The notes beneath the pieces are model-generated. The model was not told the origin of the DNA. It did no database searches and was given only the letters and a program-made list of their open reading frames with translations. Of a DNA stretch of 64,000 nt, positions 47,501-64,000 are shown piece after piece. Position numbers and translations under genes: made by a program. Origin of the DNA: an uncultured Verrucomicrobiota bacterium (GTDB lineage: Bacteria > Verrucomicrobiota > Kiritimatiellia > RFP12 > UBA3636); assembly GCA_937911295.1 (NCBI GenBank), contig CALDQE010000073.1:22352-86351 (forward strand), given 5' to 3'. Position 1 is the first letter of the stretch. The number at the start of each line of letters is the position of its first letter.

Positions 47501-50500
47501 TTCATAGTAATCTGGGATACCATCACCATCTGAATCAAGTGATGATACATCATAACCAACACCATTACCATCCCATAGCTCTGTATCAAAATCAGCTACT
47601 GCTCCACCTAGTGGAACCAAATCTGAGAAGAATGGAATTAATTCATAATTTCTAGATCCGTATAGAGAACCACTAAAGAAATCCAATGAAATTTCATATT
47701 GTGGCTCCAAGCCTGTACGATATACCTGAGCATATGGATTTGCTGAATTGTTAATCAATCTTGGATCAATTAGCTCATCAAGATTAATTTCTGATGGATC
47801 CACGATCTCTAGTTCATAAACAGCACCCATTGTTGCGTAAAGAACATAATCCTCTTCTTTACGAACTCTATAACCAAGCAATTTATATTCCTGATCAAAT
47901 ACTGCTAAGAAGCGGCGAGATGACAATGGTGGATATTGCGGAACATGAGCCGCTAGGTTTTCTGCAAGTGGTATATAGCCAAGATCTCCATCGTATACTG
48001 ATGACTTGACTAATGAACTTGCCCACCAAGGAATTTGATAGCCAGTAGGTACGCCCATACGCTCACCAATTCCTAGTGGAACCTGCTGGATATCTGTTGG
48101 ATATACAATAGAATCATCTTTACGTGTAGAATCAATAATTACATCAGGTAGATTATTGAAATTGTAGTAGTAAAGAAGCTTTTGTGGGAAATCTGCTATA
48201 GCTGTAGCATATGGGAATTTATTTTCCTCCTCCCATGCAAATCGAGCATGATTAATTGCATATACCTCATCAAGTGTAAAGCTCTTCTGATATGCTGCCT
48301 GAATTTCTGCTGCTGAACGAACACGGTCCCAAACGCGAACCTCGTCAATCCAACCATGGAAGAAATCTGATAGCACTGGCTCTGCCCAATTTGGTGCTAA
48401 TGCTCCTGCCATATAGTAAATTGGTGAAGTACCAATCTTACCATCTGGATTCTCTTCAGATGCACCAAGTACAATTGGTGCAGGATAGTAATCAAAACTA
48501 TCAAGATATGAGATAGAAGGTTGTGCAGAACCTACTGCATTTGTAACAACCAAATCCTGAGTTCCAGGGAAGTAACCGGTGCATGGCTTTAAGTCACAAG
48601 CAACTGTCTTGATTAGTGCACCATTTAGATATAGGTTAAACTTATTGTTAACTGAATCTAATGATACTGCTACATGATACCATGTATCCTTAGCAATTAA
48701 GCCATTCTCTATAGAAGTTTCAGTAGAGAATGTTGCCATTGCATCATTCTGGAATTCAGCACGTATTGTTCCTTCTGGTGTTAGCTGAATGCGGAAGGTA
48801 CGGCGAATTGCTGTCTCAATTGTACCAGTCTGGTCATCAATTGGCATACGAACTGGGCGCTCGATAAGTGTCTGATCCTTACCAGAAGCTGGATTTTCAG
48901 ACTTAAACCATAGCTCTACAGTGTATGCTGCCATAGCCCATTTATCATGGAAGAATGGAATACGTGTGCGCATTGCAGAATCAATACCATCAAGGTAAAT
49001 TGCCTTACGGGAGTGAGGATCTGTTGGATCCTTATTATCTGACAATCCACGTAGGTCTGTTGTTAAGCATTCCTCACGATCATTGATATTATCATTATCT
49101 GTATCAAGACCCTCATTTATTTCAAAATCCCATATATATTGTGGTGCTACAAATGATGGCTGTGGTGCTTCTTCTGCATTTGCCGCATACTTTGCTAACC
49201 ATGGCCAAAATGATAGCTCTGGCAACAAATTATTAGGGAATGCTGGATGCTCTTTGTCTGGTAGAATAGTTGTATATTCACCATAAGCATAGTAAAGATT
49301 TACATGGCTTTGATTGTAAGAAGTATCCGTAATCCAATATGGTGTTGGATCTGTATCAGGATAGATATCCTGACCATATACCTCAATTGATTCCTCACGG
49401 TTATTCAATCCATCTTGATCAACATCAGCATATGGAGAGCCAATGCTCCATGGCTTTGTTTCTGATAGGTATGGATATGAATAACTAGCTATTGGAATCA
49501 TTGTTCCATAGAAGAAACGACCAAATGGATCACTCTTACCCCAAATTGGATTCAAACCATGGAATATCTCCCAGTAATCATCCATACCATCACCATCAGA
49601 ATCTGGTGACATAGGATCTGTTGTTGTCAATACTGTATGGAAATATAATGGTTTTGGAGCAATCTCCTTATCAATCAAAAATGCAGGATCCCAATTATAT
49701 GGATTCTGACCATAACAACGCTGTAGCTCGTTAATTGAATGAGTTAATCCCTCACCAAAATCTGGATTTGAGCTACCATAATGCTTTGAATATACATAAT
49801 AATAAACCAAACCAAAATCTGGAATTGGGAAAATTTCTAGAAGAGCTGATATTACAACTAACTCATCATTGAATGTCTTAATTGTGATATCTGGATTTGC
49901 AGCTACAAATTCAGTATAGAATTGCTCATAAATATCTCCATAAGCTGCTGCTGCTGACATAGCCAATACCGGATCAACTCTTGGGCGAATAATATCAAAT
50001 GCATAACGATCGCCATATCCAAACCATTCTAGATTATCTGGATTAAAGAATGGGTCTGTTAGCATATCAAGATGATTCTTAGCAATCATAAGCTGTGGCT
50101 GCCAAGCATAGTTAGCACCAGTTAGATATTCCTGGTAGTTTGCAAGACCATCACAATCAGGGTCACCATATGGCCCACCCTGACCCATTGGATCATATCC
50201 AAATTTGTTTAGACCATAGATAACCTCCCAGCCATCTGGTAGATTATCAAGATCTGTATCAACACTGTTTGGATCATAGTTTGTTATTTCTGTTGCACCC
50301 TCTTCACCAAACTCTAAACCATCCATCAATCCATCATAATCACTATCTGGATTCCATGGATTTGTTGAACTTGTACGCTCAGTCCAGCCCTTAGAAACGT
50401 CTGGAGTATAGATAACTACTGTATTGGCTGCTGTGCCGATTAGATTATTACGTGCATCGTAAACATCTGTTACTTCAACAACTGCCGTTGGTGAATTACC

Positions 50501-53425
50501 AAATTCATCCTTATTTAGAAGACCATCATTGTCCCAATCGTCCTCTACCTGTGGTAAGCTTAGAGGATATTGGATTGCATTAACACCAAAACCAGAATCT
50601 AGAGGATTAATACCATGGATAAGCTCCCAACCATCAAATGAACCATCATTATCACTGTCTGTATGGCGTGGGTTTGTTGTCCATGCCATCCATGTTTCAG
50701 GTGAGAAATTAAAATCTGTATTACCTAATGATAATACCTGCATATATTCATGGTAATAACCAACCATAAATTCGTCATAGTTTGAAAATGCTGTTCCTGA
50801 AATTCCAGCAATATTTGGATTATATGGAGCATATGCCACACCATTCCACTGACCTAGACCACTTGAATTTAATAGATATGCCATCAAGTGTGATGATGTT
50901 CCATCTGGGCATTGTTCTGTTGGATTTAACTTGAAAATACCATCCTCAAGAATTGCAAATTTTGCATCTACCATTTTTGGTTCAACTGCATAGGTTGCCT
51001 CAATAATTAGCATAGAATCTCTATCAGGGTTACCACCTGCACCATGCTCACCAGCAGCACTTAATGGATCAAGATAATTCAATACTTCCCAGCCATCTGG
51101 TAGACCATCTTTATCTGTATCCCAATGTAATGGATCTGTACCTAATGTATATTCCTCAACCAAGGTTAATCCATCATTATCAAAATCCTCCATTGAATAG
51201 TTATTTGGTAGTAATGGATCAAAAGCATCAAGCAATAATTGCTTAATTGTTGCCTTGTTTTCATCAGATGTATAATCATCTAACTTAAGAATTGAAGCTA
51301 TATGCTTAACAATTGAGCTATCTGTAAATTCTCTTTCTTTAAAATCGTATGAGTAGAAGTTATTGCCAAAAGCAATCCACTTATCAAATCCTACCTCATA
51401 CATAATGGTTGTCCAGAAATAATATTCCCAGCCATCACTCATACCATCACCATCTGAATCATATCCAGATAAATCTGTTTGTGGATCTTCAGCAGAAGGG
51501 ATAGTACCAGGTGAATTTCCGCGTAGAGCAGGATCTGTTTCTGGTGTTACAATCTGAACATCTGCATAACGTCTCCAAACACCATCTCCACGATCCTCTT
51601 CTAGACCACGTGCCTCAATCAAATTGTTAAATGGATTATTTTCTGATGGGAAATAACCTATCGCTGTTGGTGTTACCTTAATAGGATATTCATAAACACG
51701 AACACTTCCTACGCCTGTAACAACATTTGGTACCTCAATTAATGAAGCATTTGGTAAATAATCACCATCTGAATTACCATTTGATCCATAAATTTTTGTT
51801 GGCTGAATTGCTGCTACTGTGCTTAAATCCTCATTCTCATCATCCATTGTAATAACGGTTCCAGAATTGAAATAACGCATTTCCCACTGGTCACCCAATT
51901 GGTCAGCATCAATATCACCAAAGCCTTCACCAGGATAATATTCCTTAGAGAAGAAATATATTACTGTTCTATCTGAAATATCATCAACTGTTTCACCCAT
52001 GTGGATAAGTGTAGATTTTCCACTATGAATAATTGACTTACTTGTTGAATCAAGAACCACCTCATCATCACCAGCAGACCAACCAAATGGGAAACTACCT
52101 TCATCTGGAATTGGCTGAACTGTTACTGCTGACACAGCACTGTTACCTGTTGATGAAAAACGATTTCCTTCTACCTTCCAAGTAATACCAGCAGGCTCTG
52201 TAAATTTAAATGTACCAGAACCAATACCATTTAAACCACGCAAGCCTTTTTCTGCCTCGTTTACAAGTAAAAGTGCTCCGTTCTCTACTTCCATTTCAAA
52301 TACACGAACTGCAACACCACCATCACCATCGTCTACTGTAAGTGTAATCTGATATGTTCCAGCTTGATTATATGTGTATGTAACATTCTGTCCAGCTACA
52401 TTGCCTTTTCCATCACCAAAGTTCCAATTGTATGACAAAGGATCATATTGTGATGGAACAACATCACGAGCAGAAGCTGAGAAGGAAACTGGCTGCCCGA
52501 TTGCTGTCTTAAATGTTGTACCCTCTGCAGGTGTATCAATTGCTGGATTTTCATTATCAGCAGAAATAGGTAATATACCTATTAGTCCATTATCTCCCTC
52601 AAGAATAAGATCTGATGTATAGAAATTGTCCAATGCCTTTAGCTTTGATAATGTAACTGTATCCTTATTTGCTGGCCATGTCAAGGTTGCTGGACCAGAA
52701 ACCAATGGAAGCCCATCTGCATTTGTAGGATATGTTATTGTGTAAATAACCTTTGTTTCTGGAGCTCTATTTACTGAAATTATAACATCCTGATACATTG
52801 AGCCTTCTTCAACAGAAAGTGATGAAGGTACAAAGACTAATGAACTCTCTACCTTAATCTGAATGTAATTTGGTGCTGTAGCATCTGTTCCGTACCAATT
52901 ATTAAATTCTGTTACAGGATTTGATGGGAAGTTTGTAATTTGAGGCTTGTCATTTGTAGGAACCTTGTAAACTGAATCAGTACCTGTATCGCCATTTTCG
53001 TAAACAAGATTTGCTGTAATATTATCTTCTCCAACAAAATTTAACAATGCCTTTCCTGAAAATTGAACAAAACCTAAATCATCAGGTTGAATTGTATAGT
53101 TAAATACCATAAGAGAAGCATCACTTGTAACATATGCTGCCTTTCTAGTTACAGTACCTATTTTAAAATTCAAGGTAGGCGTACCTGTTACTGTAAAGCT
53201 TTCAATCATTGGTGTTTCACCATCAGCATTTTCTTTATCGGAAATAAATTCAAGATAGAATTTAATTTCCCCGCTAGCGAAAACAAACTGACCCTCAGGC
53301 TGTGTTTCACCATCCTCATTAACATACTGAATGCTGCTAATTAAAACGCTTGCATTTGCGAATGAAAATGCAAACATAACAAACAATAATAATGTTGATT
53401 TTATTAGTTTTTCTATATTTTTCAT
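44588..53425 (-). CDS. Giant (2945-aa) secreted cell-surface adhesin-like protein with a PKD domain, a LamG/ConA-like lectin domain and ≥13 dispersed thrombospondin-type-3-like calcium-binding motifs.
   Basis: Seen: signal peptide. PKD block YNWNFGDGKGN...YTYNQAGTYQITLTVDDGDGG (aa ~330-380, nt ~52285-52530). LamG block TVELWFK...WYHVAVSLD...FNLYLNGALI (nt ~48550-49050). Many D.D.DG(L/I/M).D..E motifs (DTDKDGLPDGWEV, DSDGDGMDDYWEI, SLDSDGDGIPDYYEI, DTDGDGVSDLEEF and others). Confidence 0.7.
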   Translation of the reverse strand: MKNIEKLIKSTLLLFVMFAFSFANASVLISSIQYVNEDGETQPEGQFVFASGEIKFYLEFISDKENADGETPMIESFTVTGTPTLNFKIGTVTRKAAYVTSDASLMVFNYTIQPDDLGFVQFSGKALLNFVGEDNITANLVYENGDTGTDSVYKVPTNDKPQITNFPSNPVTEFNNWYGTDATAPNYIQIKVESSLVFVPSSLSVEEGSMYQDVIISVNRAPETKVIYTITYPTNADGLPLVSGPATLTWPANKDTVTLSKLKALDNFYTSDLILEGDNGLIGILPISADNENPAIDTPAEGTTFKTAIGQPVSFSASARDVVPSQYDPLSYNWNFGDGKGNVAGQNVTYTYNQAGTYQITLTVDDGDGGVAVRVFEMEVENGALLLVNEAEKGLRGLNGIGSGTFKFTEPAGITWKVEGNRFSSTGNSAVSAVTVQPIPDEGSFPFGWSAGDDEVVLDSTSKSIIHSGKSTLIHMGETVDDISDRTVIYFFSKEYYPGEGFGDIDADQLGDQWEMRYFNSGTVITMDDENEDLSTVAAIQPTKIYGSNGNSDGDYLPNASLIEVPNVVTGVGSVRVYEYPIKVTPTAIGYFPSENNPFNNLIEARGLEEDRGDGVWRRYADVQIVTPETDPALRGNSPGTIPSAEDPQTDLSGYDSDGDGMSDGWEYYFWTTIMYEVGFDKWIAFGNNFYSYDFKEREFTDSSIVKHIASILKLDDYTSDENKATIKQLLLDAFDPLLPNNYSMEDFDNDGLTLVEEYTLGTDPLHWDTDKDGLPDGWEVLNYLDPLSAAGEHGAGGNPDRDSMLIIEATYAVEPKMVDAKFAILEDGIFKLNPTEQCPDGTSSHLMAYLLNSSGLGQWNGVAYAPYNPNIAGISGTAFSNYDEFMVGYYHEYMQVLSLGNTDFNFSPETWMAWTTNPRHTDSDNDGSFDGWELIHGINPLDSGFGVNAIQYPLSLPQVEDDWDNDGLLNKDEFGNSPTAVVEVTDVYDARNNLIGTAANTVVIYTPDVSKGWTERTSSTNPWNPDSDYDGLMDGLEFGEEGATEITNYDPNSVDTDLDNLPDGWEVIYGLNKFGYDPMGQGGPYGDPDCDGLANYQEYLTGANYAWQPQLMIAKNHLDMLTDPFFNPDNLEWFGYGDRYAFDIIRPRVDPVLAMSAAAAYGDIYEQFYTEFVAANPDITIKTFNDELVVISALLEIFPIPDFGLVYYYVYSKHYGSSNPDFGEGLTHSINELQRCYGQNPYNWDPAFLIDKEIAPKPLYFHTVLTTTDPMSPDSDGDGMDDYWEIFHGLNPIWGKSDPFGRFFYGTMIPIASYSYPYLSETKPWSIGSPYADVDQDGLNNREESIEVYGQDIYPDTDPTPYWITDTSYNQSHVNLYYAYGEYTTILPDKEHPAFPNNLLPELSFWPWLAKYAANAEEAPQPSFVAPQYIWDFEINEGLDTDNDNINDREECLTTDLRGLSDNKDPTDPHSRKAIYLDGIDSAMRTRIPFFHDKWAMAAYTVELWFKSENPASGKDQTLIERPVRMPIDDQTGTIETAIRRTFRIQLTPEGTIRAEFQNDAMATFSTETSIENGLIAKDTWYHVAVSLDSVNNKFNLYLNGALIKTVACDLKPCTGYFPGTQDLVVTNAVGSAQPSISYLDSFDYYPAPIVLGASEENPDGKIGTSPIYYMAGALAPNWAEPVLSDFFHGWIDEVRVWDRVRSAAEIQAAYQKSFTLDEVYAINHARFAWEEENKFPYATAIADFPQKLLYYYNFNNLPDVIIDSTRKDDSIVYPTDIQQVPLGIGERMGVPTGYQIPWWASSLVKSSVYDGDLGYIPLAENLAAHVPQYPPLSSRRFLAVFDQEYKLLGYRVRKEEDYVLYATMGAVYELEIVDPSEINLDELIDPRLINNSANPYAQVYRTGLEPQYEISLDFFSGSLYGSRNYELIPFFSDLVPLGGAVADFDTELWDGNGVGYDVSSLDSDGDGIPDYYEILMGMDPYSADGDDGAFGDLDGDGLDNYAEYLAGTSANSADTDGDGISDYFERDTEQSLTYGDMYDDGDGMPSAWELDNGLDADKFDAHEDKDADGWTNIEEYIAGTRANDTLSFPMPNITFTFHYNGDIVDVPCITVHSFSEKHAGKDMGGKLDGLWTDLPNLLSVLVQVGEDRQGVLPNTMIKAGTARLTYMTPPTVNEEGIPVPGVLTTVGESPINENQGQFEGTNFYIDYVSGVIIDGSIGGILVGQTVSLDYSYTYSFPFTKSDVMPALTEGRHLRSGNNRFFGFLDLNSDYKYDAGEPCGLSTQRPTLISVNGANVEIAMTDDLWGYPRISWGNVDSTNAPTVTADEYEVVIINPTGDSDTIKIRAPRTWLHEGDIINAGLKGIPFGTSTSPFIEYEVWAGDEMIHEGMLEWNLGVNNRRKMAIIAPVEEMNGALVEFKWQMDHRNQGAKIVIKNSAGATVYNDVILLPVRHGDLEDVDMYYSTFPQLEGGQGKFFLLPDDTYTYTITEYINGTGIKPQSVSGEFTVNNEGTPRMNYSVNGTITYFGKVHNEGTSSNIMTADGTSLVASGEIGAINPGTISFSVVNAAGDVIDTIRDTFSDGVLKGDSNENPGFGKIYYDTGKFEIRWQQPLAAGAKLNMYKKSFTKAPIIVESYVVPESSNHANGIGGTLAARMKATTKGTYSLVGMSRGKYVVRAFIDSNNNGFCDTWESEGFATLGAPLSGPIVYEAIEPIVLPNTVNGSADALNANIVIFDKDTDNDILPDSWEYQMFGDINKYSGRDYRNGIYIWQEYADGALDSDPTMVDTDSDGLSDAAEINLTFTNTHSWDTDGDGVSDLEEFLSGSNPKAADESTPYATLAVEFDENGKPFVQCPYPAVVAGNEITYYLKYKAELGAKDWQVVDTLKVAPPMVINGKLEAGTAIMRPDEALIDDWSTGFFKIDVTVDCQEFEVIHSNSTSEVIGK

Positions 53426-53468
53426 ACCTTATACCTTCTCTTATAGGTTATGTTTATTTAAAATTAAC

Positions 53469-54059
53469 TTATTCAGCTTTTTCCTCAGATGACTCTTCTG
53501 TAGCCTCTGTTTTAATAGCACGTGATTTCATATTTAAACGAACTAATTCTGAAGATTTTTTAGTTTCTTCAGATAACTGCTTTTGAATTGATTCCTTAGC
53601 TGCTACTAGCTTCACATACTCTGCATCTTCATCTATTATTTTCTGAATAGCAGCCTTTTTTTCTGTAAGCTGCTTCTCTAAATCAGCAATTTCTGTTGAC
53701 AAAACTTTTGCTTCTTCATTTGTCTTGATAATTGTATCCTTATGAGCAGCTATTTCTTTCTCTGCCTTCTCTAGATTAATTCGTATAGCTTCTGTTTTTT
53801 CCTTCTGAAGCTTCATCATTGCAATGCGCTTTGTGGTCTCTTTATCATTTTGCTTATAAAATGCATTCTTATTGTTTGCCTCTAAACGCTCTTTAATTTT
53901 TGCACGACGCTCAGCAACCTTTGGATCAACTGTGCTTTCTTCTGCAGTAGCCTCTGCAACTGCATTAGTATTGGTTGTGGTCTCTGTGGCTTTTGGCTCT
54001 TCTTTAGCAAATACAGAGAAACCAATAATAACAAATAATAAAATTAAATTTTTCTTCAT
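53469..54059 (-). CDS. Secreted Lys/Glu-rich coiled-coil protein, unknown function.
   Basis: Seen: signal peptide, then heptad-like K/E-rich sequence throughout. Confidence 0.45.
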   Translation of the reverse strand: MKKNLILLFVIIGFSVFAKEEPKATETTTNTNAVAEATAEESTVDPKVAERRAKIKERLEANNKNAFYKQNDKETTKRIAMMKLQKEKTEAIRINLEKAEKEIAAHKDTIIKTNEEAKVLSTEIADLEKQLTEKKAAIQKIIDEDAEYVKLVAAKESIQKQLSEETKKSSELVRLNMKSRAIKTEATEESSEEKAE

Positions 54060-54079
54060 ATCTGATTTTCCTAAATAAT

Positions 54080-55501
54080 TTATTGAGCTATTCGTCTAAA
54101 TCTAAAGAAACTTGAATTGATGCTTGAAGCATCATTCTGATCTACTAATATTTTTATTGGTATATTCAAGAAACATTCCTTTGTGGATGATGCTTCTGTA
54201 ACTTCTCCTGAAATATCAAAAACCTCATCACTTCCAACAAAATTATTTCCTGTAATAGTAAATTCACCTGCTGCCTCTGGTACATTTATATTGGCTTGCA
54301 ATGCTGGAGCCCATGCAGCCTCTGTTAGCTCTTTCTTATAATCTAACATATAATTACCAACTGGATTCTCCCCAGATAATGAAACAACTAAATTTGTCAT
54401 GGTTATTGCTGTAAATTTGATTTTTACATCATATTCTTCATCTGGCAAAACTTCCTCTTCTTCAGTAAAAACACGATCATCAATATTATATGCTGCTACT
54501 CGCCTATTATTACTATCCGCTACTAATATTACTGATTTGCCATCTACGCCTGTTGAACAATATGGAAAACTTAACTTTGATTTAGCTGTTCCTGAATTTC
54601 CTAGCTTCAACAAAAATTTTCCAGAATCAAAATCATATAGATTTATACTACTTGTGGCTCTATCTGTAACAACCAATGATAATTTTCCTGATTCTGTTTT
54701 CCAAATATCAACATCTGTTGGTTGAACTAAATTACTTTCTGTTGAATCATTTACTAATGGTAATGTTTTATCAAGTGCTACAGTATCAGACAAAATACTA
54801 TATACATATACTTTCTTAGCCAACACATCTGCTATTGCTAAATATTCTGATGCTCCATCTGAATAGTAATCTATTCCAGCAAATGAATTTTGGGATAATG
54901 GTGTGCCAAAATAAAAAACTTTTCCAGTAATATTATCGGTAGCCATATCCAAAAACAAAATATGTGAACCATCAGCAGCTATTGCATATACTTTATCACC
55001 TGCATTATTTATGGAAATGCCAGCATATTTATCCTCTACGGTTGCACTAAAATCAAAATCTAAAGCAACTGTCCCGTTGGTATTTTTAACTAATTTATAT
55101 ACTACAAATCTTGTATAAGTGGAAAATTGATCCATCAATACTACTAAATTCTTTTCGTTATTGTATGCTATATCATAAGGATACGAAATAACCCCATCTA
55201 TTGTTGATTGACCCTTGTGTAAAAGTAAAAGCTTGCCAGCTACATCATTACTATAAATTGCTATTGCATTTCTTCCGGCGTCTGCAACAAATATATAATC
55301 CTCTGAAGCTGCTATTCCTCGTGGGCGAGCACCGCTAACAGTTTGAGAATATTCAGCCGTTGGATTTATATATGTAAATTGAGTATATGTATCCGCATAT
55401 ATTGCAGGTACTTGATATATAACTGCAATTATATTCGCTAGTATAAGATTATGGCAAATTTTCTTTATATTACTGCCAATTATACTCATTTTATACTCCA
55501 T
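54080..55501 (-). CDS. Secreted beta-propeller protein with NHL-like repeats.
   Basis: Seen: recurring blades with motifs P.GIA / YDIAY / AGISIN / FAGIDYY / PTDVDIW. Confidence 0.4.
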   Translation of the reverse strand: MEYKMSIIGSNIKKICHNLILANIIAVIYQVPAIYADTYTQFTYINPTAEYSQTVSGARPRGIAASEDYIFVADAGRNAIAIYSNDVAGKLLLLHKGQSTIDGVISYPYDIAYNNEKNLVVLMDQFSTYTRFVVYKLVKNTNGTVALDFDFSATVEDKYAGISINNAGDKVYAIAADGSHILFLDMATDNITGKVFYFGTPLSQNSFAGIDYYSDGASEYLAIADVLAKKVYVYSILSDTVALDKTLPLVNDSTESNLVQPTDVDIWKTESGKLSLVVTDRATSSINLYDFDSGKFLLKLGNSGTAKSKLSFPYCSTGVDGKSVILVADSNNRRVAAYNIDDRVFTEEEEVLPDEEYDVKIKFTAITMTNLVVSLSGENPVGNYMLDYKKELTEAAWAPALQANINVPEAAGEFTITGNNFVGSDEVFDISGEVTEASSTKECFLNIPIKILVDQNDASSINSSFFRFRRIAQ

Positions 55502-55721
55502 TACTGTTAGTTATTTTAAAAAAATATATCACAATGAGGGTATAGTACCCCTACAAAAGATAATGCTACCATAAGATTAAATGTAAAACAATAGAAAACT
55601 AGCTTTTTTAGGGAAAAATGAGTTAATTTTTTTTTGAGGTTTATATTTATAAAATAAAAAAAACACCCCTTTTATGGAATGTTTTTTTCTTTAATAAATC
55701 ATAATTGCTTGATTTTGAATA

Positions 55722-56261
55722 CTATATTTCTTCAGAATTACGCTTTGCCTGCTCTACCCAACCTAGAACATCCTCAGTATAACCTTCTGGAAGTTCTAAA
55801 AGCTGCTTTCCACAATTACCACAGCATCCTCCTGGTGTCTGAAGCTTAACTCCACAATGAGGACATACTTTAATCAAAATTTCACCACATATCGCACAAC
55901 GATTGGAAAAGCCTGCTTTTCCTGTAGGCTTGAAATATACATTCATTCCTACTATATATGGCTTATTACTTGGACATTCAAAATTAGCACACATTGCCAC
56001 CTCTGGCTGTAATGGTGCTAAAGCTGCAGCTGTCAATACTGGTCCCATGCTCGGAATCAGTGCCGATAAATTAATTTCTAATAATTCTGCTAGCTTCTCA
56101 TAAGTAGACTCTGAAATGGCATCTACTCTGCCACCCTCCATCATACTAATTGCTGATTGCTTGCAGCCTACCTTATTTGCTATTTCTATTTGGGTAATAC
56201 CACGCTCCAATCGAGCCGCCCTTATTAGCTTTGGTAGTTGTTTTAATATTTCCTGTTTCAT
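55722..56261 (-). CDS. XRE-family helix-turn-helix transcriptional regulator fused to a C-terminal Cys-rich zinc-ribbon domain.
   Basis: Seen: HTH block LERGITQIEIANKVGCKQSAISMMEGG. C-terminal Cys pairs spaced CAIC...CPHC...CCGNC. Confidence 0.6.
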   Translation of the reverse strand: MKQEILKQLPKLIRAARLERGITQIEIANKVGCKQSAISMMEGGRVDAISESTYEKLAELLEINLSALIPSMGPVLTAAALAPLQPEVAMCANFECPSNKPYIVGMNVYFKPTGKAGFSNRCAICGEILIKVCPHCGVKLQTPGGCCGNCGKQLLELPEGYTEDVLGWVEQAKRNSEEI

Positions 56262-56517
56262 GCGTATTAGTATGCAATAAATAATATCAACAAATCAAGC
56301 ATAACTTATCAACAGCTTGTTGATATTCTGTTGATAATTATTGTTGATTACTAAATAAATATCTTAAAAACAATAACTTATATGTTATCAACAATCTTGA
56401 TAATAACCTGTTAATAAACCTATTTTAATAAATATTATTTATAAATGATTGAAGCTATTGCCTCAAAGCATAGCCTCTCTTGACACATATGGTCTATTAA
56501 ATATTAGTTATTAACAA
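56262..56517. promoter_or_regulatory. AT-rich region with a cluster of TTATCAACA/TGTTGATAA and TGTTAATAA 9-mers, including an 8-bp inverted pair. These are DnaA-box-like sites and/or operators for the adjacent regulator.
   Basis: Seen: TTATCAACA at 56306-56314 and 56385-56393. Inverse copies at 56317-56325 and 56329-56337, TGTTGATTA at 56342, TGTTAATAA at 56409-56417. Confidence 0.35.
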
Positions 56518-57951
56518 TTAATGATGCTTGCTCTCTCTGGCATCAGTTTCTAAAGCTATCTTTAACTCTGATAACCTTGATGGTAATATAAGCTCCTGCA
56601 TGGCTGCTGCTATGCTTTTTGGAGATAATGCATGTAATCTACCATATTTATTATATAAATGGTCTGCTACACGCATTATTTGCTCAAATGGCGTATTTTC
56701 ACTGAAAATATATAACCTGGAGGATAGGTTAAATCTACCACGATTGTACATTATATCAAAGCATTTAGCAAAACGCTCCATTCTTCTTAACTCAGCAAAA
56801 CTAATATCTCTAGTTGAAAGTACCTCAAATGGAGGATCTGGAGAGAATTTTAATTCGTATTTTTCTATATGCCTATACATAGCCGTACCAGGAAGAAGCT
56901 TTAATATGCCAACCTGAAGCTCAGCTGGATTTAATCCAATCAAAAAGTTAAATCCAGAGGCAATAGTTTCTATTCCTTCTCCTGGCAAACCTATAATTAA
57001 ATCAGCATGAACGTCAGCTCTAGCCTCTTCTATTAAAAATTTAAGCGTTTGTGTCGTTTTTTCACGATTTAAAGGTCGTTTTATTCGTGCAGCTATCTCT
57101 GGCTCCCAAGTTTGTATTCCAACCTCTAAATGAAGCGTTTTAGGCGGAAATGCACAAAGCCTCTGTCTCCATGCCTCATTAGGCTCCTCTGGAGTAAATT
57201 CAAAATGAAGAGTCATTCCTTCTCTATAATTTTCTCTAAAGAAATCTAATAAAGCTAATGAATGTTCCCCACCATGATTAAAGGACCTATCCAAAAATTT
57301 AAAATGAATTACCCCTCGGTTAATTAATTTTAAAAATTCACGCTTTAATGCCTCTAATGGAAAATATCTTATTCCCCCACTTCCTGCAGAAGTACAATAT
57401 TCACAAGAAAAAGGACAGCCTCGTGTTGCTTCTACATAAACAACCCTATTTGCTATATCCTTATCCTCATATAAATAATATGGTAGCTTTACTTTTGATA
57501 AATCTACTGGTTGTGCAAAAATCTCATAAGAACAAGAAGGAATATTTTTTTTACCAGACAATGCTAATTTTACAGCATCGTATATAACCTCTTCGCCTTC
57601 ACCATAAATTATTATGTCGACAAATTTTTTTAATGGCTCTGTTTCATCATAAGGTACAAGCTGTGGTCCACCAGCAATAATAGGAACATCAGGAATAATC
57701 TCACGACATAATTTGCACACTGCCACAAAAAAATCCCTGTTCCACAAATATGTTGAAAGTAGAATAACAGAAGGAGACAATGCCACAAGCCTCTCAAAAA
57801 ATTGAAGCGGTGTTGTCTCCCTTACCTCTGTCTCTATAATTAAAGCATTCTCCTCTAAATCACGAAGAGAGGCTTTAAGACACATTGAAGCAAAGGCACA
57901 ATGTATGTAGCTAGCATTACCACCTACAAATACAATATTTGTCTTTGCCAT
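56518..57951 (-). CDS. B12-binding-domain radical SAM protein (class B).
   Basis: Seen: N-terminal Rossmann-like B12-binding region (VFVGG...LLSTYLWN). CPFSCEYC radical SAM cluster. The ATG at 57949-57951 (MAKTNIV...) is the likely start. Confidence 0.7.
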   Translation of the reverse strand: MAKTNIVFVGGNASYIHCAFASMCLKASLRDLEENALIIETEVRETTPLQFFERLVALSPSVILLSTYLWNRDFFVAVCKLCREIIPDVPIIAGGPQLVPYDETEPLKKFVDIIIYGEGEEVIYDAVKLALSGKKNIPSCSYEIFAQPVDLSKVKLPYYLYEDKDIANRVVYVEATRGCPFSCEYCTSAGSGGIRYFPLEALKREFLKLINRGVIHFKFLDRSFNHGGEHSLALLDFFRENYREGMTLHFEFTPEEPNEAWRQRLCAFPPKTLHLEVGIQTWEPEIAARIKRPLNREKTTQTLKFLIEEARADVHADLIIGLPGEGIETIASGFNFLIGLNPAELQVGILKLLPGTAMYRHIEKYELKFSPDPPFEVLSTRDISFAELRRMERFAKCFDIMYNRGRFNLSSRLYIFSENTPFEQIMRVADHLYNKYGRLHALSPKSIAAAMQELILPSRLSELKIALETDARESKHH

Positions 57952-57961
57952 AGCTTTTATT

Positions 57962-58588
57962 TTAAAGCTGAGCAAATGCCTTTAACCAAGCATCAGCAAT
58001 TAATTGATGACCAGCACCACTTGGATGAACTCCATCTGGTGTCCAATGCTCCATCGCTGCCCTTGCATTTGCAGACTCAAAACTTTCATGAAGCTTTACA
58101 CATGGAAGTGAAAATTCTTTTGCTATTTTTTCCACCACTGCCTGTCGCTCATTAAGCTCAGGGAAAAAGCTTGCTATGTGATCATTAATTGGATTTGCAA
58201 ATGGAGTCATTAAAATAATTTTTATGTTAGGCAACTCCGTTTGAGTCCATTCTATTAACTCACGATAAAATCTCTCATAACGTGGAACCTCAACCCCATT
58301 TTGTCCACCACGCTCATGCCATGTATCATTAACTCCAATTAATATTGTTAAAATATCTGGAGCTATATTTATACAATCTGCCTTCCATCGAGCATATAAA
58401 TCAACAATTCTATTTCCACTTATTCCACGATTTATAATCTCATAATTTTTTTCTGGAAAATCACAAAGTAAACGATTTGCAATAAGCTTTACATAGCCTG
58501 CTCCTAAAGCACAATCACGTACACCTGTCCCTACATCTGTAAAACGACCAGCATCTGTAACTGAATCGCCTTGAAATAAAATTTTCAT
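57962..58588 (-). CDS. SGNH/GDSL hydrolase-family esterase, a paralogue of the 33630..34289 gene.
   Basis: Seen: ILFQGDSVTDAGR, GISGN, GVNDTWHE, DGVHP catalytic blocks. Confidence 0.65.
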   Translation of the reverse strand: MKILFQGDSVTDAGRFTDVGTGVRDCALGAGYVKLIANRLLCDFPEKNYEIINRGISGNRIVDLYARWKADCINIAPDILTILIGVNDTWHERGGQNGVEVPRYERFYRELIEWTQTELPNIKIILMTPFANPINDHIASFFPELNERQAVVEKIAKEFSLPCVKLHESFESANARAAMEHWTPDGVHPSGAGHQLIADAWLKAFAQL

Positions 58589-58594
58589 TTTAAA

Positions 58595-59110
58595 TTATTC
58601 CTTTTCTTTGTTTATCTGCTTTAAGCCTTCTAAAGCAAGGCGAGCATGTCTTACATTTAAATTATTACGTAAATTTTTTTCTGCTAATTCTTTTATCTCA
58701 GGTGACTTTAATATTTCATTTCTAATTTCCTGACGAACCTTAGCTAATTCTGCTGCCAGCTTTTTTTCTTTGTCGCGCAATGCATTAACTTTTTCTGAAT
58801 CATTCTGTGGAACAAATCCAATACACTTCCTTTCATATTCCATCCGTGATTTTCTAGCCTCAGCTCCTTCATCTATTATATACTTTTGAAGTGCTTCAAT
58901 TTCATTTTGTATTGCTTCGTTTGATTGCTTTGACCAATACTCTCTATATTTCAAAAAATCAGCATCTGTTCGAGGTAAATTTTTCTCTACTGTATTTTCA
59001 ATTAAAGTTGGTGTTTCAACAGGAACTGCTTCATTTAATTTTACATCTTCTGAAAATACAATTATTGAATTTAAAATAACTATGCTTACTAATAATATCT
59101 TATTTTTCAT
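58595..59110 (-). CDS. Secreted coiled-coil protein, unknown function.
   Basis: Seen: signal peptide, then E/K/R-rich helical sequence. Confidence 0.4.
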   Translation of the reverse strand: MKNKILLVSIVILNSIIVFSEDVKLNEAVPVETPTLIENTVEKNLPRTDADFLKYREYWSKQSNEAIQNEIEALQKYIIDEGAEARKSRMEYERKCIGFVPQNDSEKVNALRDKEKKLAAELAKVRQEIRNEILKSPEIKELAEKNLRNNLNVRHARLALEGLKQINKEKE

Positions 59111-59113
59111 AAA

Positions 59114-60214
59114 TTAAATTCCTGGACAAATTTCATTTGCTCGTGGATACAAAGCATCCATTTCTGCTTTAAATTGATTTAATTCAGGTGTAGGAGTAAT
59201 TTTAATATCTTCGCCACTTCCTAAATTCTTTGTGCGCCATGAATCATATTTTCGCTGTGCATCATTTAAAGTTTTTCTTGCGGTTACCTCTTCAAGCTTA
59301 AGCTTATGTATTTTATTCTCAAGATTTGCTCTTGCTGCTCCACTTGTTGTTTTACGCTTTTCCTCTAACTCATCAGATTCTTTTTTTAAATTTTTATAAA
59401 CTTTTACTGCATCATGATACTCCGTGTAATGTGGATTTTTTTTAATCTCTTCTTTGCGTAATTCAGTTAATAAGCTTTGATACTTTCCACGTGCAGTACA
59501 AAAATCAATTATTGTTGTTTTATCTGGATGTACTTTATTATTGTAAGGTCCACGGAACATTACTAAATCAGATTCCTTTATAAAAAATTCAACATCTGGA
59601 TTTATAATTCCATCCTTTATTTGATGACATTGTATCAATGCAACATTCTTCATAAATATATGATCTCGCGTCTCTACTACAATACCACCTAAAATAGAAC
59701 CAATTTTATTTTTTTCTTTATTATAAATATCAGTATTAACTGCAACTACAGCCCAATTTGGTCCATCATAATCTTCTGGAATTTCTGGCTCTTCAAATAC
59801 CTCTTCCTCTACTACCTCAACTGTCTGCTGAACAGCTGAATCTGGTTCAACTACCTCTGTGCTATCACTTGTCTCTTTTGGCTTATTTGAATCACCATCT
59901 ATAAGTTCTACTACCTTACGTTTTGTTGATGTAAATACAGATTCTACTGCTACCTTTTCTATTTTTGTTTCTTTAACTTCAGATGATTCTTCAAAATCAT
60001 TTAAATCTTCTTCTATGTTTACTTCAACATTATTCATAGAACTATCTAACAAAACTATTTCTTTTCCAGTAACTCTTGAATAAATTTCTTTATTATAAAA
60101 ATCTGGCGAAAATGATTTCAAAAAATAAAGTACAGCACCAAATATTACAATAAAAATTATTGTCCTGATTATCGAAGAAATAATAAATGATAAATTTACT
60201 TTAAACATAATCAA
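59114..60214 (-). CDS. Membrane-anchored protein with an acidic linker and an uncharacterised C-terminal domain.
   Basis: Seen: N-terminal TM helix (IIRTIIFIVIFGAVLYFL), a Glu/Val-rich linker, and a C-terminal coiled-coil. No family recognised. Confidence 0.4.
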   Translation of the reverse strand: MIMFKVNLSFIISSIIRTIIFIVIFGAVLYFLKSFSPDFYNKEIYSRVTGKEIVLLDSSMNNVEVNIEEDLNDFEESSEVKETKIEKVAVESVFTSTKRKVVELIDGDSNKPKETSDSTEVVEPDSAVQQTVEVVEEEVFEEPEIPEDYDGPNWAVVAVNTDIYNKEKNKIGSILGGIVVETRDHIFMKNVALIQCHQIKDGIINPDVEFFIKESDLVMFRGPYNNKVHPDKTTIIDFCTARGKYQSLLTELRKEEIKKNPHYTEYHDAVKVYKNLKKESDELEEKRKTTSGAARANLENKIHKLKLEEVTARKTLNDAQRKYDSWRTKNLGSGEDIKITPTPELNQFKAEMDALYPRANEICPGI

Positions 60215-60236
60215 TTAGCCTTAAAAATTTTTAAAA

Positions 60237-61466
60237 TTAGTTATTATCTATTTTTGAAAAAGCATCTGCAAATGAACCGAATGATGAACTCTGCTTACGA
60301 GATTTTTCTATATACTCACGAGCCTCTAACTCTTGCTTTTCTTGCTGCTCATCACTTTCGCTTGTTTTTGCTGCTTCATCTAAAACTTCAACTACATGCA
60401 ATGAAATTTTTCTTTCATCATAATCTATATTGTCAATTTGTAAATCCAACTGCTGATCAATTTTAAAATATAATCTTGGATCGCTAATACGATGCTTTAA
60501 ACCAAGCTTTGATATATGGACAAATCCCTCTACTCCACAATCAAGCTCAACAATTACTCCAATTTGTAATAGCTTAATTATTTTTCCTGTTAAATAACTA
60601 CCAACATCATATTCAGCCTCAAATAAATTCCATGGATCCTCTTTAGCATCTAATAAACTAAATGAAAAACGATTATTTTCCCAATCAAGAGAAATAATTG
60701 TAACACTTACATTCTGTCCCTCAGATACTACATCCTCTGGCTTCGTATTTTTGTTCCATGAAAGCTGACGTAATGGAATCAATCCTTCAACTCCACCTAT
60801 ATCTACAAATACTCCAAAAGGCATTATTTTTGTTACCTTACCAGTAACTTGATCACCCTCTGAAAGCGTCTCCTTTAATGCATTACGCTTTTCAATTGCA
60901 TCTCGCTCCTGTAATGCACGATGACTTACCACCAATGTACGATCCTCTGGCTCATATTCAGTAACAAGAAAATTCATTACTTTGCCAATATATAAATCAT
61001 TTGGTTCATCTCGACGCTTATTCTTATCGATTTGTGAATATGGACAAAATCCTCGCTGACCACAAACTATTACCTCATACCCACCATTTATTTCTTTTTC
61101 TACCTTGCCCTCTACTGGAAGCTTTGTTGTATACGCTTGTAGTATTGATTGATTTGCTACTGAACTATTGCTTCCAGCACTAGCAGTAAATCTAGCAGAA
61201 CCATCTCTTACCTCTACAAAATATACTTCAATTACATCGTTTGGTTCAGGTAATGGAATATTTGTATCCCATTGATTAGTATCAATTACACCTTGAAGCT
61301 TTGAGTTTACATCAAGTACAATATAATCATCTGTCACTGAAATTACTGTACCTCTTACCTTTTCTCCAGGATTAAACCCTCTACGTAAACCCTTCATCTG
61401 CTCATCAATCTCATCCATTAATGCTGCCATAGCTTGAGATTTTAATCCTCTTTTAGGTGTAATCAT
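60237..61466 (-). CDS. S1 RNA-binding-domain protein (about four S1 repeats, short ribosomal-protein-S1-like) with an acidic C-terminal tail.
   Basis: Seen: repeated S1-type blocks (G.V..V...GV.V.L..GV.G..H.S.L). 409 aa. Confidence 0.6.
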   Translation of the reverse strand: MITPKRGLKSQAMAALMDEIDEQMKGLRRGFNPGEKVRGTVISVTDDYIVLDVNSKLQGVIDTNQWDTNIPLPEPNDVIEVYFVEVRDGSARFTASAGSNSSVANQSILQAYTTKLPVEGKVEKEINGGYEVIVCGQRGFCPYSQIDKNKRRDEPNDLYIGKVMNFLVTEYEPEDRTLVVSHRALQERDAIEKRNALKETLSEGDQVTGKVTKIMPFGVFVDIGGVEGLIPLRQLSWNKNTKPEDVVSEGQNVSVTIISLDWENNRFSFSLLDAKEDPWNLFEAEYDVGSYLTGKIIKLLQIGVIVELDCGVEGFVHISKLGLKHRISDPRLYFKIDQQLDLQIDNIDYDERKISLHVVEVLDEAAKTSESDEQQEKQELEAREYIEKSRKQSSSFGSFADAFSKIDNN

Positions 61467-61520
61467 TTATACCCTCTCAAAATATTTTTTGGTTATATGA
61501 GTATCTGTTTTTATAACTTA

Positions 61521-62609
61521 TTATCCACGCAATGGCATAATAACATACAAGAATGGAATGTCACTCTTGATTAGTCCAGGACTGGATTCTTTATTTAATT
61601 CAATATAAATTACATCGCTAGTTAAATTACGCAATGGATCCATCATAAATTCTGGATTAAATATTGTTATAATCTCTGGACCCTCATATTTAATAGCAAT
61701 TGTATCCAATGCTTCACCAACTTCAACTGCAGTTACTGAAATTGTAAGCAAATTATCAGCAAAGCATAAACGCATTGAATTTGATGTCGGTGTTGTAGAT
61801 ACTGACATACGCTTCAATACAGCTAATAGCTCTTCTCTATTGATTTCAATTCTATAATCACATTTTGCTGAAACAAATTTCTTAAAGTCTGGATATGAAC
61901 CACTCAATACTTTACTTGAAAGTGTTAAATCTCCAAATGTAAATATTGCCTGATTTTCCTTAATAATAATCTCAATGTCTCCCTCAGTACCCAAAACTCT
62001 TATTAGTTCTTGAACTGCTTTAGTAGGAAGAATTGAATCACGATTATTTTCCACAGGGAATTCTACCTCTGTCTCATATAATGCTAATCGACGGCAATCT
62101 GTAGCAGCACAAATTAATTTGCTATTCTCAAAATTCATCATAACTCCATTTAGAATAGCTCTTGAATCATCTGTTGATGCTGCATATACTGTCTTTTTAA
62201 GCATATCTAATAATCTACCTTGTTGAAGTGTATATGAAACTCCTCCATCAAGTGTTTGTTTTGCAGGAAATTTATTTGCTGGTATACCAAGTATCTTTGA
62301 ACGATATGATCCACAACTCATACTAGCTGTCTCATCTGAAGCATCAATCGTTACAACTCCACTAGATAGCTCGTGAACAATACCAGTTAATTTACGAACT
62401 GGAAGTGTTATTTCACCTTGCTCAACAATTTCAGCCTCACAACTATATTCCATAGTCATATCTTGAGTTGTTGTTCTAAAGAATATCTTATCCTCAGAGG
62501 TATAAATTAATACATTTGAAAGAATTGGTTCTGTTACCTTTGTTGGTACTATATTTTGAACCTTAGCTAGTGCGTTATACAATGTTGGTTGAGGTATTCT
62601 TATTTTCAT
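61521..62609 (-). CDS. dnaN: DNA polymerase III beta sliding clamp.
   Basis: Seen: three-domain clamp length (362 aa), N-terminal MKIRI...L, C-terminal ...YVIMPLR typical of DnaN. Confidence 0.85.
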   Translation of the reverse strand: MKIRIPQPTLYNALAKVQNIVPTKVTEPILSNVLIYTSEDKIFFRTTTQDMTMEYSCEAEIVEQGEITLPVRKLTGIVHELSSGVVTIDASDETASMSCGSYRSKILGIPANKFPAKQTLDGGVSYTLQQGRLLDMLKKTVYAASTDDSRAILNGVMMNFENSKLICAATDCRRLALYETEVEFPVENNRDSILPTKAVQELIRVLGTEGDIEIIIKENQAIFTFGDLTLSSKVLSGSYPDFKKFVSAKCDYRIEINREELLAVLKRMSVSTTPTSNSMRLCFADNLLTISVTAVEVGEALDTIAIKYEGPEIITIFNPEFMMDPLRNLTSDVIYIELNKESSPGLIKSDIPFLYVIMPLRG

Positions 62610-63190
62610 AACTTGTCCCAGATTTTTTATTCACAGTCGATTTATAAACAATTGCTAATATTATACTATATTAAAAAATTATTACAATAGTAGTATTAGA
62701 ATATTTAATAACTTTCGCAAATTAATATTAACTACATGAAAAACAATGCTTTAATTATTTTTATAAGATGTTGATAACCTTTTGATTATTTTTTAATAAC
62801 TGATGACTTATAAACAATGTTGTAATTAACTTCAAGTTATTAACAGGGTTAATATCAATTTATTAACATGTTATTAACAAGTAATTAAAATTTCAACCAT
62901 TGCAATAAACCACCATTTATATATGTAATTTTACACTTTTTTTAAAATAAAATCAATAGAGTAATATGTTTAGAATACTAAAATTATTTAATAAAATTTT
63001 ATAAATGAGTTATATTACCTTTGTTTTATGAAAATTATGCCAGTTTTAGGTATGTGAATTAGATTTTTTTCTAAATATCATACTTATAATTTTATTAACA
63101 AATATTTGGTATTTATTAACAAGTTATTAACAGGTTTATTATGATAATGCAGTAAAAATCAAAATATTGTAATATATACTCAAAATTATA
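62610..63190. other. Candidate chromosomal replication origin (oriC): an extremely AT-rich non-coding region upstream of dnaN with multiple DnaA-box-like 9-mers.
   Basis: Seen: TTATTCACA (62628-62636, consensus-perfect) and TGTTGATAA (62769-62777). TTATTAACA at 62837, 62860, 62871, 63092, 63113 and 63125. A near-pure AT stretch at 62640-62760. Inferred: consistent with the ~35:3 minus-strand gene bias to the left. Confidence 0.4.
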
Positions 63191-63194
63191 TATT

Positions 63195-63440
63195 TTTCAT
63201 TTTATTATGATATAGACGCGAGACGATTGTGCGACGATAGACGCTAGACAACCGAAGACTCGAGACGCTAGACGTTGAACGGACATGAGACGCTTAGACG
63301 ATAAGACTCCTCATCGCGTTGACACGCGACCCATCCTGCGTTGACACGCACCCTTGAGACATTAGACTAGAGACTAGAGACATGAGACACTGACAATAGA
63401 TAAAAAGCCAATTAGACAGCGAACGGACACGAGACAATCA
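63195..63440. repeat. T-poor, GC-richer block with ~12-13-bp periodic AGAC(G)/GAGAC/TAGAC motifs, including a direct repeat GCGTTGACACGC x2. Cryptic tandem repeat of unknown function.
   Basis: Seen directly: about 15 AGAC-anchored units. GCGTTGACACGC at 63316 and 63338. Composition is sharply different from the adjacent AT-rich DNA. Confidence 0.45.
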
Positions 63441-63686
63441 GACTGCGAGTGCTAACGATTGCTAGTCGCGTTGCTTGTTGCTTTCGCTAACACGGAGTAC
63501 GGAGGACAAAGGAGAATTGTGCCAACAATCATTCCAGTACCCCACATCACCTCTCCGTGTCTCCGTTCTCAGGAAAATCACACTACGTGTGCTCCGTGTT
63601 TCGCCGAAGGCTATAGCGTCAGCTTGAAATCTGTCTTATCGTCTAATTGATGGAGTCGCCCAGTGTTTTAGAGCAAAAGGCGGCAA

Positions 63687-64000
63687 TCACTTGGGATTAC
63701 ACATTGCAAGTAACTCTTCAACTGAGGTTGTGGCAAGACAAACGACAGTATCTGCGGCTCCATAGTAAATTTTCACAGATCCATCATCCTCAGCAATCAT
63801 CCCTCCAGGGAAAATTACATCATTACGGAAGCCATTCCGCTCATACTCCTCAGTAGGTGCTATTATTGGTTCGTCACACTTCCCTATTACTCGCCATGGC
63901 TCATTCAAATCAAGTAGCATCACGCCAGCTTGATAACGCTTCTGCCACTTATCCTCCCAACCATTCTTCCCTCTTGTTGTATCTAAATCAACAGCATGAA
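63687..64000 (-). CDS. C-terminal part of a GH130-family glycoside phosphorylase/hydrolase. The gene continues beyond the window end.
   Basis: Seen: ...VIFPGGMIAEDDGSVKIYYGAADTVVCLATTSVEELL, typical of the GH130 C-terminus. Partial. Confidence 0.5.
   Translation of the reverse strand, partial: HAVDLDTTRGKNGWEDKWQKRYQAGVMLLDLNEPWRVIGKCDEPIIAPTEEYERNGFRNDVIFPGGMIAEDDGSVKIYYGAADTVVCLATTSVEELLAMCNPK

Follow-up and report, generated by a model that had tools for sequence, protein, structure and literature searches.

The intergenic region upstream of dnaN

The dnaN gene, which encodes the beta clamp of DNA polymerase III (362 aa; 61521..62609, minus strand), lies near the right end of a stretch of 64 000 nucleotides from contig CALDQE010000073.1 of an uncultured bacterium of the Kiritimatiellia (assembly GCA_937911295.1), referred to here as the window. 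The assignment of this open reading frame (ORF) is supported by three DNA_pol3_beta domains (PF00712/PF02767/PF02768) on an identical product. dnaN is the first gene of a leftward co-oriented gene block, and the 1077-bp gap upstream of it, which has no ORF of at least 120 aa, is the longest non-coding gap in the window. We analysed the dnaN-proximal part of this gap, positions 62610–63200, as a candidate chromosomal replication origin (oriC). An earlier reading of the same DNA, the original prediction, had offered two explanations for it: an origin linked to dnaN without dnaA, or a dnaN promoter regulated by DnaA.

The 591 bp of this region are 81.9% AT, compared with a window mean of 63%, and no other segment of that size in the window is as AT-rich. 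Its richest 120 bp (62915–63034) have an AT content of 87.5%, and uninterrupted A/T extends over 28 bp at most (62979–63006), so that the stretch of about 120 bp of almost pure A/T described previously was overstated. The two least stable 40-mers of the region, 62659–62698 and 62978–63017, are tied and both coincide with conserved blocks.

Genes of the window are of the chromosomal housekeeping type (holA, proA/B, uvrD, lptFG, ndk, yebC), and the DnaN protein matches proteins of uncultured Kiritimatiellae/Lentisphaerae metagenome-assembled genomes (MAGs). An iteron-type origin of a plasmid or secondary chromosome, defined here by direct repeats of about 17–22 bp adjoining a rep initiator gene, was considered and rejected, because the repeats are 9-mers of the DnaA-box type, there is no rep gene and the neighbours are housekeeping genes. 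A search for parS (TGTTNCACGTGAAACA, at most three mismatches) returned chance-level matches only, none of them near the candidate origin.

A probable DnaA-box array with a variant consensus

The region 62610–63200 holds nine sites of the form TTATNAACA and one TTATTCACA. The eight 9-mers listed in the original prediction are all present (TTATTCACA once, TGTTGATAA once and TTATTAACA six times); two copies of TTATAAACA, at 62642 and 62808, had been missed. We propose TTATNAACA as the box consensus of this lineage, with A at position 6 in place of the C of the classical TTATNCACA. In 2000 dinucleotide-preserving shuffles of the region itself, 0.33 ± 0.57 such sites were expected and three was the maximum. 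Over the whole window there are 20 TTATNAACA sites for 7.0 expected, nine of them inside the candidate origin, and 11 copies of TTATTAACA for 1.8 expected, six of them in the region; none of 100 shuffles reached 11. The strict TTATNCACA is not enriched (four in the window for 4.8 expected, one in the region). The box signal therefore lies wholly in the A6 variant, and a DnaA-box cluster of the kind sought by Ori-Finder-type searches is found here only with TTATNAACA.

The positions of these boxes were compared in a footprint alignment of the spacers of three species, that of the window and two sister species whose DnaN proteins are 83% and 80% identical to it. Blocks of conservation extend over the 600 bp adjoining dnaN, and the mnmG-proximal half of the spacer does not align. 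All strong boxes hold their position, with T/A changes at the N position only. The box nearest to dnaN, TTATTCACA (62627..62635, plus strand), is the sole site fitting the classical TTATNCACA; it lies 17 nt from the start codon, not 19 as first given, and reads TTGTAAACA in the sister species. It is followed by a TTATAAACA box at 62642..62650 (plus), which takes the form TTATWAACA in the sister species and has TTATGAACA as its aligned counterpart in two more distant loci, L007 and L047. The TTATCAACA box at 62769..62777 (minus), listed as TGTTGATAA in the original prediction, is the only strong box oriented towards dnaN, and corresponds to TTATAAACA in the sister species. A second TTATAAACA box, at 62808..62816 (plus), is also conserved.

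The six TTATTAACA sites form two triplets around a 210-bp AT-rich spacer, each triplet with an 11-bp-spaced pair. Triplet A (62837..62879, plus strand) has sites at 62837, 62860 and 62871, and its start-to-start distances of 23 and 11 bp, like its positions, are kept in both sister species. Triplet B (63092..63132, plus strand) has sites at 63092, 63113 and 63124, spaced by 21 and 11 bp; its 11-bp pair is retained in the sister species, where the third site is replaced by an inverted box across the other side of the pair. The spacer between them (62880..63091, 82.5% AT) includes a block of 21–22 bp, TATTTAATAAAATTTTATAAAT (62985–63006), which is invariant in the three species and lies within the least stable 40-mer 62978–63017. 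This block, which like the AT-rich block 62652–62712 near dnaN is almost unchanged between the species, could be a second unwinding site or the site of an architectural protein. A scan with the invariant 21-mer TGCTAATATTATACTATATTA gave three unrelated chance matches, without dnaN or mnmG.

That AT-rich 9-mers recur by chance in DNA of 82% AT raises the possibility that the array arose by accident in a spacer unusually rich in A/T and serves no specific function. The shuffles of the region itself (0.33 expected, nine observed) and the conservation of box positions across species in which synonymous sites are saturated effectively refute this explanation, to which we attach a negligible probability.

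The plus strand carries the TTATTCACA box and all but one of the nine TTATNAACA sites. In the box flanks TTAT may be preceded by G, T or C, and the final A is invariant; the site is thus asymmetric like a DnaA box and is not the palindrome GTTANTAAC, and for the origin sites a palindromic-operator reading of GTTANTAAC was rejected on these grounds.

A second dense cluster of the motif is found in the intergenic segment 56286–56516, directly upstream of an HTH_3/XRE-family gene (55722..56261, minus strand). It contains five exact TTATNAACA sites (56306+, 56329-, 56385+, 56409- and 56508+) together with several one-mismatch copies, and palindromic order in part of it (TTATCAACA-GC-TTGTTGATA); both sister species conserve the cluster. 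One possibility is that these are DnaA boxes away from oriC, for titration or in a DnaA-regulated promoter; the other is an operator of the helix-turn-helix (HTH) protein. DnaA-box clusters outside oriC are known in other bacteria.

A predicted unwinding module and dnaN promoter

Between the dnaN-proximal boxes and the rest of the array lies a putative unwinding module. A weak box, TTATTAAAT (62703..62711, minus strand), which aligns with TTATTCCCA / TTGTTCCCA / TTATTCAGC in relatives, stands directly 5' of a DnaA-trio-like run (62685..62702, minus strand) that reads ATT CTA ATA CTA CTA TTG in the dnaN sense, with the complement 3'-TAA GAT TAT GAT GAT AAC-5'. Next to it, the AT-rich block 62652..62684 is nearly invariant in the three species and is the predicted DNA-unwinding element.

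Published search rules for the basal unwinding system (BUS) call for a box with at most two mismatches, a spacer of 0–16 bp and three or more NAN trios in the strand to which DnaA binds, with the consensus 3'-GAT-5'; a tandem pair of boxes upstream of the trios is the commonest arrangement, present in 57% of origins, and is not obligatory (PMC8287927). We coded these rules and ran them on eight loci. The module was the top candidate in six of the eight, the window among them, always 103–118 bp from the dnaN ATG, and the alignment of the eight loci displays a box, a 3-nt spacer, CTA-led trinucleotides and then AT-rich DNA, with CTA.T.CT invariant. In the window TTATTAAAT stands at the permitted limit, with two mismatches to TTATNAACA and a spacer of 0–3; among relatives, TTATTCCCA has one mismatch and a spacer of 3. 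There are six trios in the window, three of them exact GAT (CTA on the complement), and four to six at the aligned position in relatives, as in L006 (CTA TTA CTA TTA CTC). No second box was found within 3 bp of the module box, the nearest strong box of the same orientation being 58 bp away (62769–62777). The weight of the trio run comes from its conservation in GC-richer relatives, since at 82% AT the run alone is not significant.

The predicted unwinding element carries a good sigma-70-like promoter for dnaN (62687..62660, minus strand), detected by a promoter scan, with the -35 element TTGTAA at 62687..62682, a 16-nt spacer and the -10 element TATAAT at 62665..62660. As two boxes lie between this promoter and the start codon, the sites might serve only in a DnaA-regulated dnaN promoter, for autoregulation or cell-cycle control, the true origin being elsewhere, for instance next to an unlinked dnaA. 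In many bacteria the origin adjoins dnaA, and no dnaA is nearby here. The array, however, reaches some 520 bp beyond the promoter on the upstream side and comprises two triplets and a conserved AT-rich spacer, far in excess of the needs of a repressor or operator; as judged from other assemblies, the change of gene orientation and GC skew falls exactly at this spacer; and the conserved box-and-trio module is present. We consider a promoter without origin function improbable. In B. subtilis promoter and origin functions coexist upstream of dnaN, so that a promoter at this place does not exclude an origin. Likewise the two alternatives of the original prediction are not exclusive, because the dnaN promoter lies inside the predicted unwinding region. 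A DnaA-regulated dnaN promoter, like its counterparts at other origins, is probably real as well, DnaA bound there probably regulating dnaN.

Gene orientation and GC skew around the spacer

Leftwards of the candidate origin, about 45 of 47 ORFs (at least 120 aa, not nested in a longer ORF) are on the minus strand, a stronger one-sidedness than the 35 of 38 originally claimed. Over these 62 kb (1–62609) the gene-strand bias is extreme for a bacterium of the Planctomycetes–Verrucomicrobia–Chlamydiae (PVC) group, and the only clear plus-strand genes encode an Hsp20 protein (1761–2192) and a GDSL lipase (33543–34289).

For the right-hand side we relied on several metagenome contigs that carry the exact DnaN sequence; the organism is present in ERZ1767568, ERZ1767467, SRR6425822, DRR848718 and SRR24653728. 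One of them, L001, is 100% identical to the window over 51600–63571; another, L003, is identical to L001 across the aligned spacer, and both then diverge from the window. In these two contigs, which represent other assemblies of the same strain, the genes to the right, mnmG/gidA, recA, ftsH and a gene for a giant surface protein, are all transcribed away from dnaN. Both sister species have the same layout, with mnmG and dnaN diverging from the spacer, and their recA, ftsH and giant-protein gene likewise point away. The far side of the spacer is flanked by mnmG/gidA, and the near side by dnaN, in L001, L003, L086 and L087–L090, and the indicator gene that Ori-Finder-type searches look for, dnaN, is adjacent in the window itself. 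Divergent and almost fully co-oriented gene blocks of this kind are the pattern expected of an origin and not of a terminus.

In a composite of the window and L001, with about 10 kb to the right, GC skew is -0.165 left of the dnaN start and +0.114 right of the mnmG start, and within the window the cumulative skew falls monotonically to the right end. We rejected GC skew as independent evidence because a plus-strand gene has the opposite sign; as the skew here follows the coding strand, skew and gene orientation are one line of evidence.

The right end of the window and a dispersed repeat

The point at which the window diverges from L001 and L003, position 63571, falls inside a GC-richer dispersed repeat (63200..63680) with (G/T)AGAC motifs and their complements, which bounds the origin and is not part of the origin proper. 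The repeat family is intergenic and about 50% GC, one arm consisting of short (G/T)AGAC units and the other of GTCT(C/A), and has the direct repeat GCGTTGACACGC in two copies. Besides 63200–63680, copies were found at 29480–29581 in the window, at 8710–9414 and 6167–6486 in L001 and at 3831–3902 in L087; in L001 a copy lies downstream of mnmG. The repeat matches no Rfam family, and its RNA fold has a z-score of -3.1. Two shorter contigs end inside it. Since contigs break or diverge within it, this multi-copy repeat is an assembly hazard.

Beyond the junction, 63572–64000 runs into the 3' end of a GH130 gene (PF04041, mannoside phosphorylase-like), which is open to the window end, instead of mnmG/gidA. 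A protein search with the 103-aa GH130 fragment returned only fragments 74–76% identical and no exact match, and an exact-match scan of JGI metagenomes for the 63571 junction found nothing. The junction reflects a strain-level rearrangement at the repeat or else a chimeric join in the assembly; the mnmG arrangement is supported by several assemblies and species. The original prediction had named predominantly minus-strand genes to the right as an observation that would speak against an origin. The sole right-hand gene in the window, the GH130 fragment, is indeed on the minus strand, past the 63571 junction; neither L001 nor L003 has this junction, and there, as in the sister species, the genes on the right are directed away from the spacer.

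dnaA and the reader of the boxes

Searches by tblastn with three Pfam-verified DnaA proteins found no dnaA in the window or in L001, which extends about 10 kb further right, nor in L003, the sister-species loci or the nearest relatives, in agreement with the absence of an adjacent dnaA noted originally. Among the 80 listed matches to GTDB loci the window species does not occur, the best DnaN there being 57% identical. In distant relatives with DnaN 52–57% identical and 47–53% GC, mnmG and dnaN follow each other on the same strand or dnaN has another neighbour, again without dnaA; in L007 and L047, with DnaN 56% identical and about 50% GC, TTATNAACA sites lie 268, 217 and 51 bp from dnaN, with 11-bp pairs further upstream. 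Relatives whose DnaN is 41–47% identical retain the canonical dnaA–dnaN pair, and it is three of their DnaA proteins that were verified by Pfam.

These dnaA-linked loci allowed the boxes to be compared with the protein. Of 65 sites of the form TTATNNACA flanking dnaA in loci of the Kiritimatiellia/Lentisphaerota type, 42 carry A at position 6 and 16 carry C, in genomes of 45–64% GC. The start of the DnaA recognition helix is mainly of two types: ..F(G/S)KTH(A/G)TV.., which differs from E. coli by R432K, D433T, T435A and one residue fewer, and the canonical ..FGGRDHGTV... With a slightly wider site definition than TTATNNACA, sites flanking dnaA were counted in 21 loci of the first type and 15 of the second. 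KTH(A/G)TV loci have an A6:C6 ratio of 63:11 (17 of 21 A-majority, none C-majority) and GGRDHGTV loci one of 10:25 (10 of 15 C-majority, none A-majority), an association of helix type with box position 6 that gives a Fisher probability of 9e-9, uncorrected for phylogeny. Four loci with a third variant, RNHAT(V/I) (L038, L057, L065 and L084), were excluded from the counts. Across loci L012–L085, DnaA domain IV carries GGRDHGTV (Verrucomicrobiota-type), G-KTHATV (Kiritimatiellia/Lentisphaerota-type) or S-RNHATI (for example Pontiellaceae L084, L057 and L065).

It is helix 434–451 of E. coli DnaA that recognises the TnCACA half of the box, and the T435M substitution eliminates binding (PMC5742627). 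In Mycoplasma hominis and relatives, the 9-mer TTATTAACA carries the annotation of a putative DnaA box (PMC2751442). Given these two observations and the co-variation of the A6 box with the DnaA helix, DnaA is most likely the reader of the TTATNAACA sites in the window.

Another protein could nevertheless bind the TTATNAACA repeats and regulate or initiate replication, for instance the XRE-family HTH protein encoded 6 kb away. The dnaA of this organism has not been seen, the conserved and partly palindromic TTATCAACA/TTATTAACA cluster at 56286–56516 is directly upstream of the HTH_3 gene, and GTTANTAAC is itself nearly palindromic. Yet the origin sites are asymmetric, eight of nine TTATNAACA being in one orientation; the A6 variant prevails next to dnaA in 17 of 21 related genomes and varies together with the recognition helix; and TTATTAACA already figures as a putative DnaA box in M. 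hominis (PMC2751442). Such a protein is an unlikely reader at best, and an organism that has no dnaA and in which another protein reads the sites is much less likely than one with DnaA.

An origin model

Taken together, these results make it very probable that 62610–63200 is the oriC of the chromosome in an uncultured bacterium of low GC content from the Kiritimatiellia/Lentisphaerota branch of the PVC group. The origin alternative of the original prediction is supported by the conserved box array, the box-and-trio module, the switch in gene orientation and skew, and the co-variation of the A6 box with the DnaA helix. The hallmarks usually sought in a DnaA-dependent oriC are a box cluster, an AT-rich element, an indicator gene, an asymmetry switch and DnaA-trios (PMC10225481). 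The boxes, indicator gene and trios appear to be present here, and a switch of asymmetry is seen locally, in the composite with L001. The AT-rich element that Ori-Finder-type searches look for corresponds to the region as a whole (81.9% AT, the window maximum) with its two least stable 40-mers.

The following model is proposed. DnaA, encoded elsewhere in the genome, would bind the array of about ten 9-mers with the consensus TTATNAACA, most of which share one direction and six of which form the two triplets, each with its 11-bp pair, on either side of the 210-bp AT-rich spacer. Nearest to dnaN, the weak box at 62703–62711 would be followed by five or six CTA-type trinucleotides (62685–62702) and the AT-rich block 62652–62684. 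This arrangement is that of the B. subtilis basal unwinding system of Richardson, Pelliciari and Murray, in which DnaA bound at the box oligomerises along the trio strand and opens the AT-rich DNA next to it. Forks would then depart both ways, co-directionally with nearly all genes on each side, and DnaA at the dnaN promoter, inside the unwinding region, would probably regulate dnaN too.

Several points weigh against this model. We infer DnaA binding, unwinding and initiation at 62610–63200 from the DNA sequence. The trio-adjacent box is weak (two mismatches), with no strong box within 3 bp, and NTN-triplet runs are common in 82% AT DNA, so that in this species alone the trio run is not significant; the dnaN promoter could explain part of the conservation of the block in which it lies. 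Skew tracks the coding strand, the plus-strand gene 33543–34289 having a value of +0.07 and intergenic DNA one of only -0.06, and the view to the right spans about 10 kb, which falls short of a whole-replicon skew minimum. The only gene to the right in the window, the GH130 fragment (63687–64000), is on the minus strand. Finally, the organism's own dnaA was not found, its placement in the KTHATV group comes from DnaN similarity only, and the co-variation of helix and box, without phylogenetic correction, is essentially a comparison of two clades.

Comparison with known origins

One of the closest parallels is the incC part of the B. subtilis oriC, where boxes 6/7, trios and AT-rich DNA precede dnaN. 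There the complement of the trio strand has the sequence 5'-CTACTATTACTTCTACTA-3', and the boxes lie to the 5' side of it (PMC10201434). The window has the same order of box, short spacer, CTA-type trinucleotides, AT-rich DNA and dnaN, and the same trio strand and polarity (5'-CTA CTA TTA...-3'), and its candidate origin likewise abuts dnaN. Unlike B. subtilis, it has no dnaA on the other side and hence no bipartite incA/B-dnaA-incC layout. Its trio-side box is weak and single instead of a tandem pair, the consensus is TTATNAACA, the strong boxes lie 60–500 bp from the trios and mostly point away, and no DnaD or DnaB-loader elements are implied.

With E. coli/Vibrio-type origins the region shares its separation from dnaA, box arrays that flank AT-rich DNA and, in L001, L003 and the sister species, a gidA (mnmG) flank transcribed away. 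It differs in that the other neighbour is dnaN and not mioC, no GATC/SeqA system is evident, and both box consensus and architecture are different; mnmG, moreover, does not adjoin the spacer in the window itself.

Origins of the Synechococcus elongatus type in cyanobacteria lie upstream of dnaN. They resemble that of the window in being linked to dnaN without an adjacent dnaA and in using a lineage-specific box, TTTTCCACA in the Synechococcus elongatus type (PMC10225481). The phylum and the box variant differ, and strand bias and skew are strong in the window, whereas many cyanobacteria have no clear skew. In consensus and in the placing of its strong boxes the region stands apart from the B. 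subtilis, E. coli and cyanobacterial origins alike. Mycoplasma hominis, M. mobile and M. arthritidis, also with low-GC genomes, have the identical 9-mer TTATTAACA annotated as a putative DnaA box (PMC2751442); it occurs there in one or two copies upstream of dnaA, in contrast to the array of about ten boxes next to dnaN in this unrelated phylum.

Other features of the window

No Rfam family reached its gathering score anywhere in the window, no tRNA or tmRNA was found within it, and 5800–10000 of L001, which comprises the origin, repeats and mnmG, gave nothing credible in Rfam at E <= 1. A further non-coding gap of 879 bp (22246–23124), also without an Rfam match at gathering score, has a positive GC skew, opposite to that of its surroundings. 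It holds a short-unit repeat (CTGGGAGATTCGGAG / TAGGAGATTGGGAG), a 36-bp direct repeat whose copies are 502 bp apart and a 26-nt inverted repeat. A giant minus-strand ORF of 2945 aa (44588–53425), which both sister species conserve, encodes PKD, bacterial TSP3 and Laminin_G_3 domains, as identified by Pfam in the identical L001 product.

Significance

An origin at this position would fix the replication start of an uncultured lineage, which is of use for genome orientation, for quality control of MAGs, for coverage-based estimates of growth rate and for interpreting its very strong gene-strand bias. Scans with the E. coli consensus would give the origins of this clade too low a score, since TTATNAACA appears to be the box that functions here. 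Origins unlinked to dnaA and species-specific boxes are well known, and current understanding is not overturned by this finding; the only aspect that seems mildly novel is the apparent lineage-wide pairing of the A6 box with the KTHATV helix.

We lean slightly towards the view that this branch of the PVC group has re-specified the recognition of its origin by the initiator, the helix having changed from GG-RDH(T/G)TV to G-KTHATV (D433T, T435A and one residue lost) and the box from TTATNCACA to TTATNAACA, and that the sub-branch of the window has in addition lost the linkage to dnaA, its origin now lying between mnmG/gidA and dnaN. If true, this would be a natural and testable case of co-evolution of an essential initiator and its binding site, and the correspondence between box position 6 and DnaA residues 433/435 may offer a small but concrete lead on how the TnCACA half-site is read.

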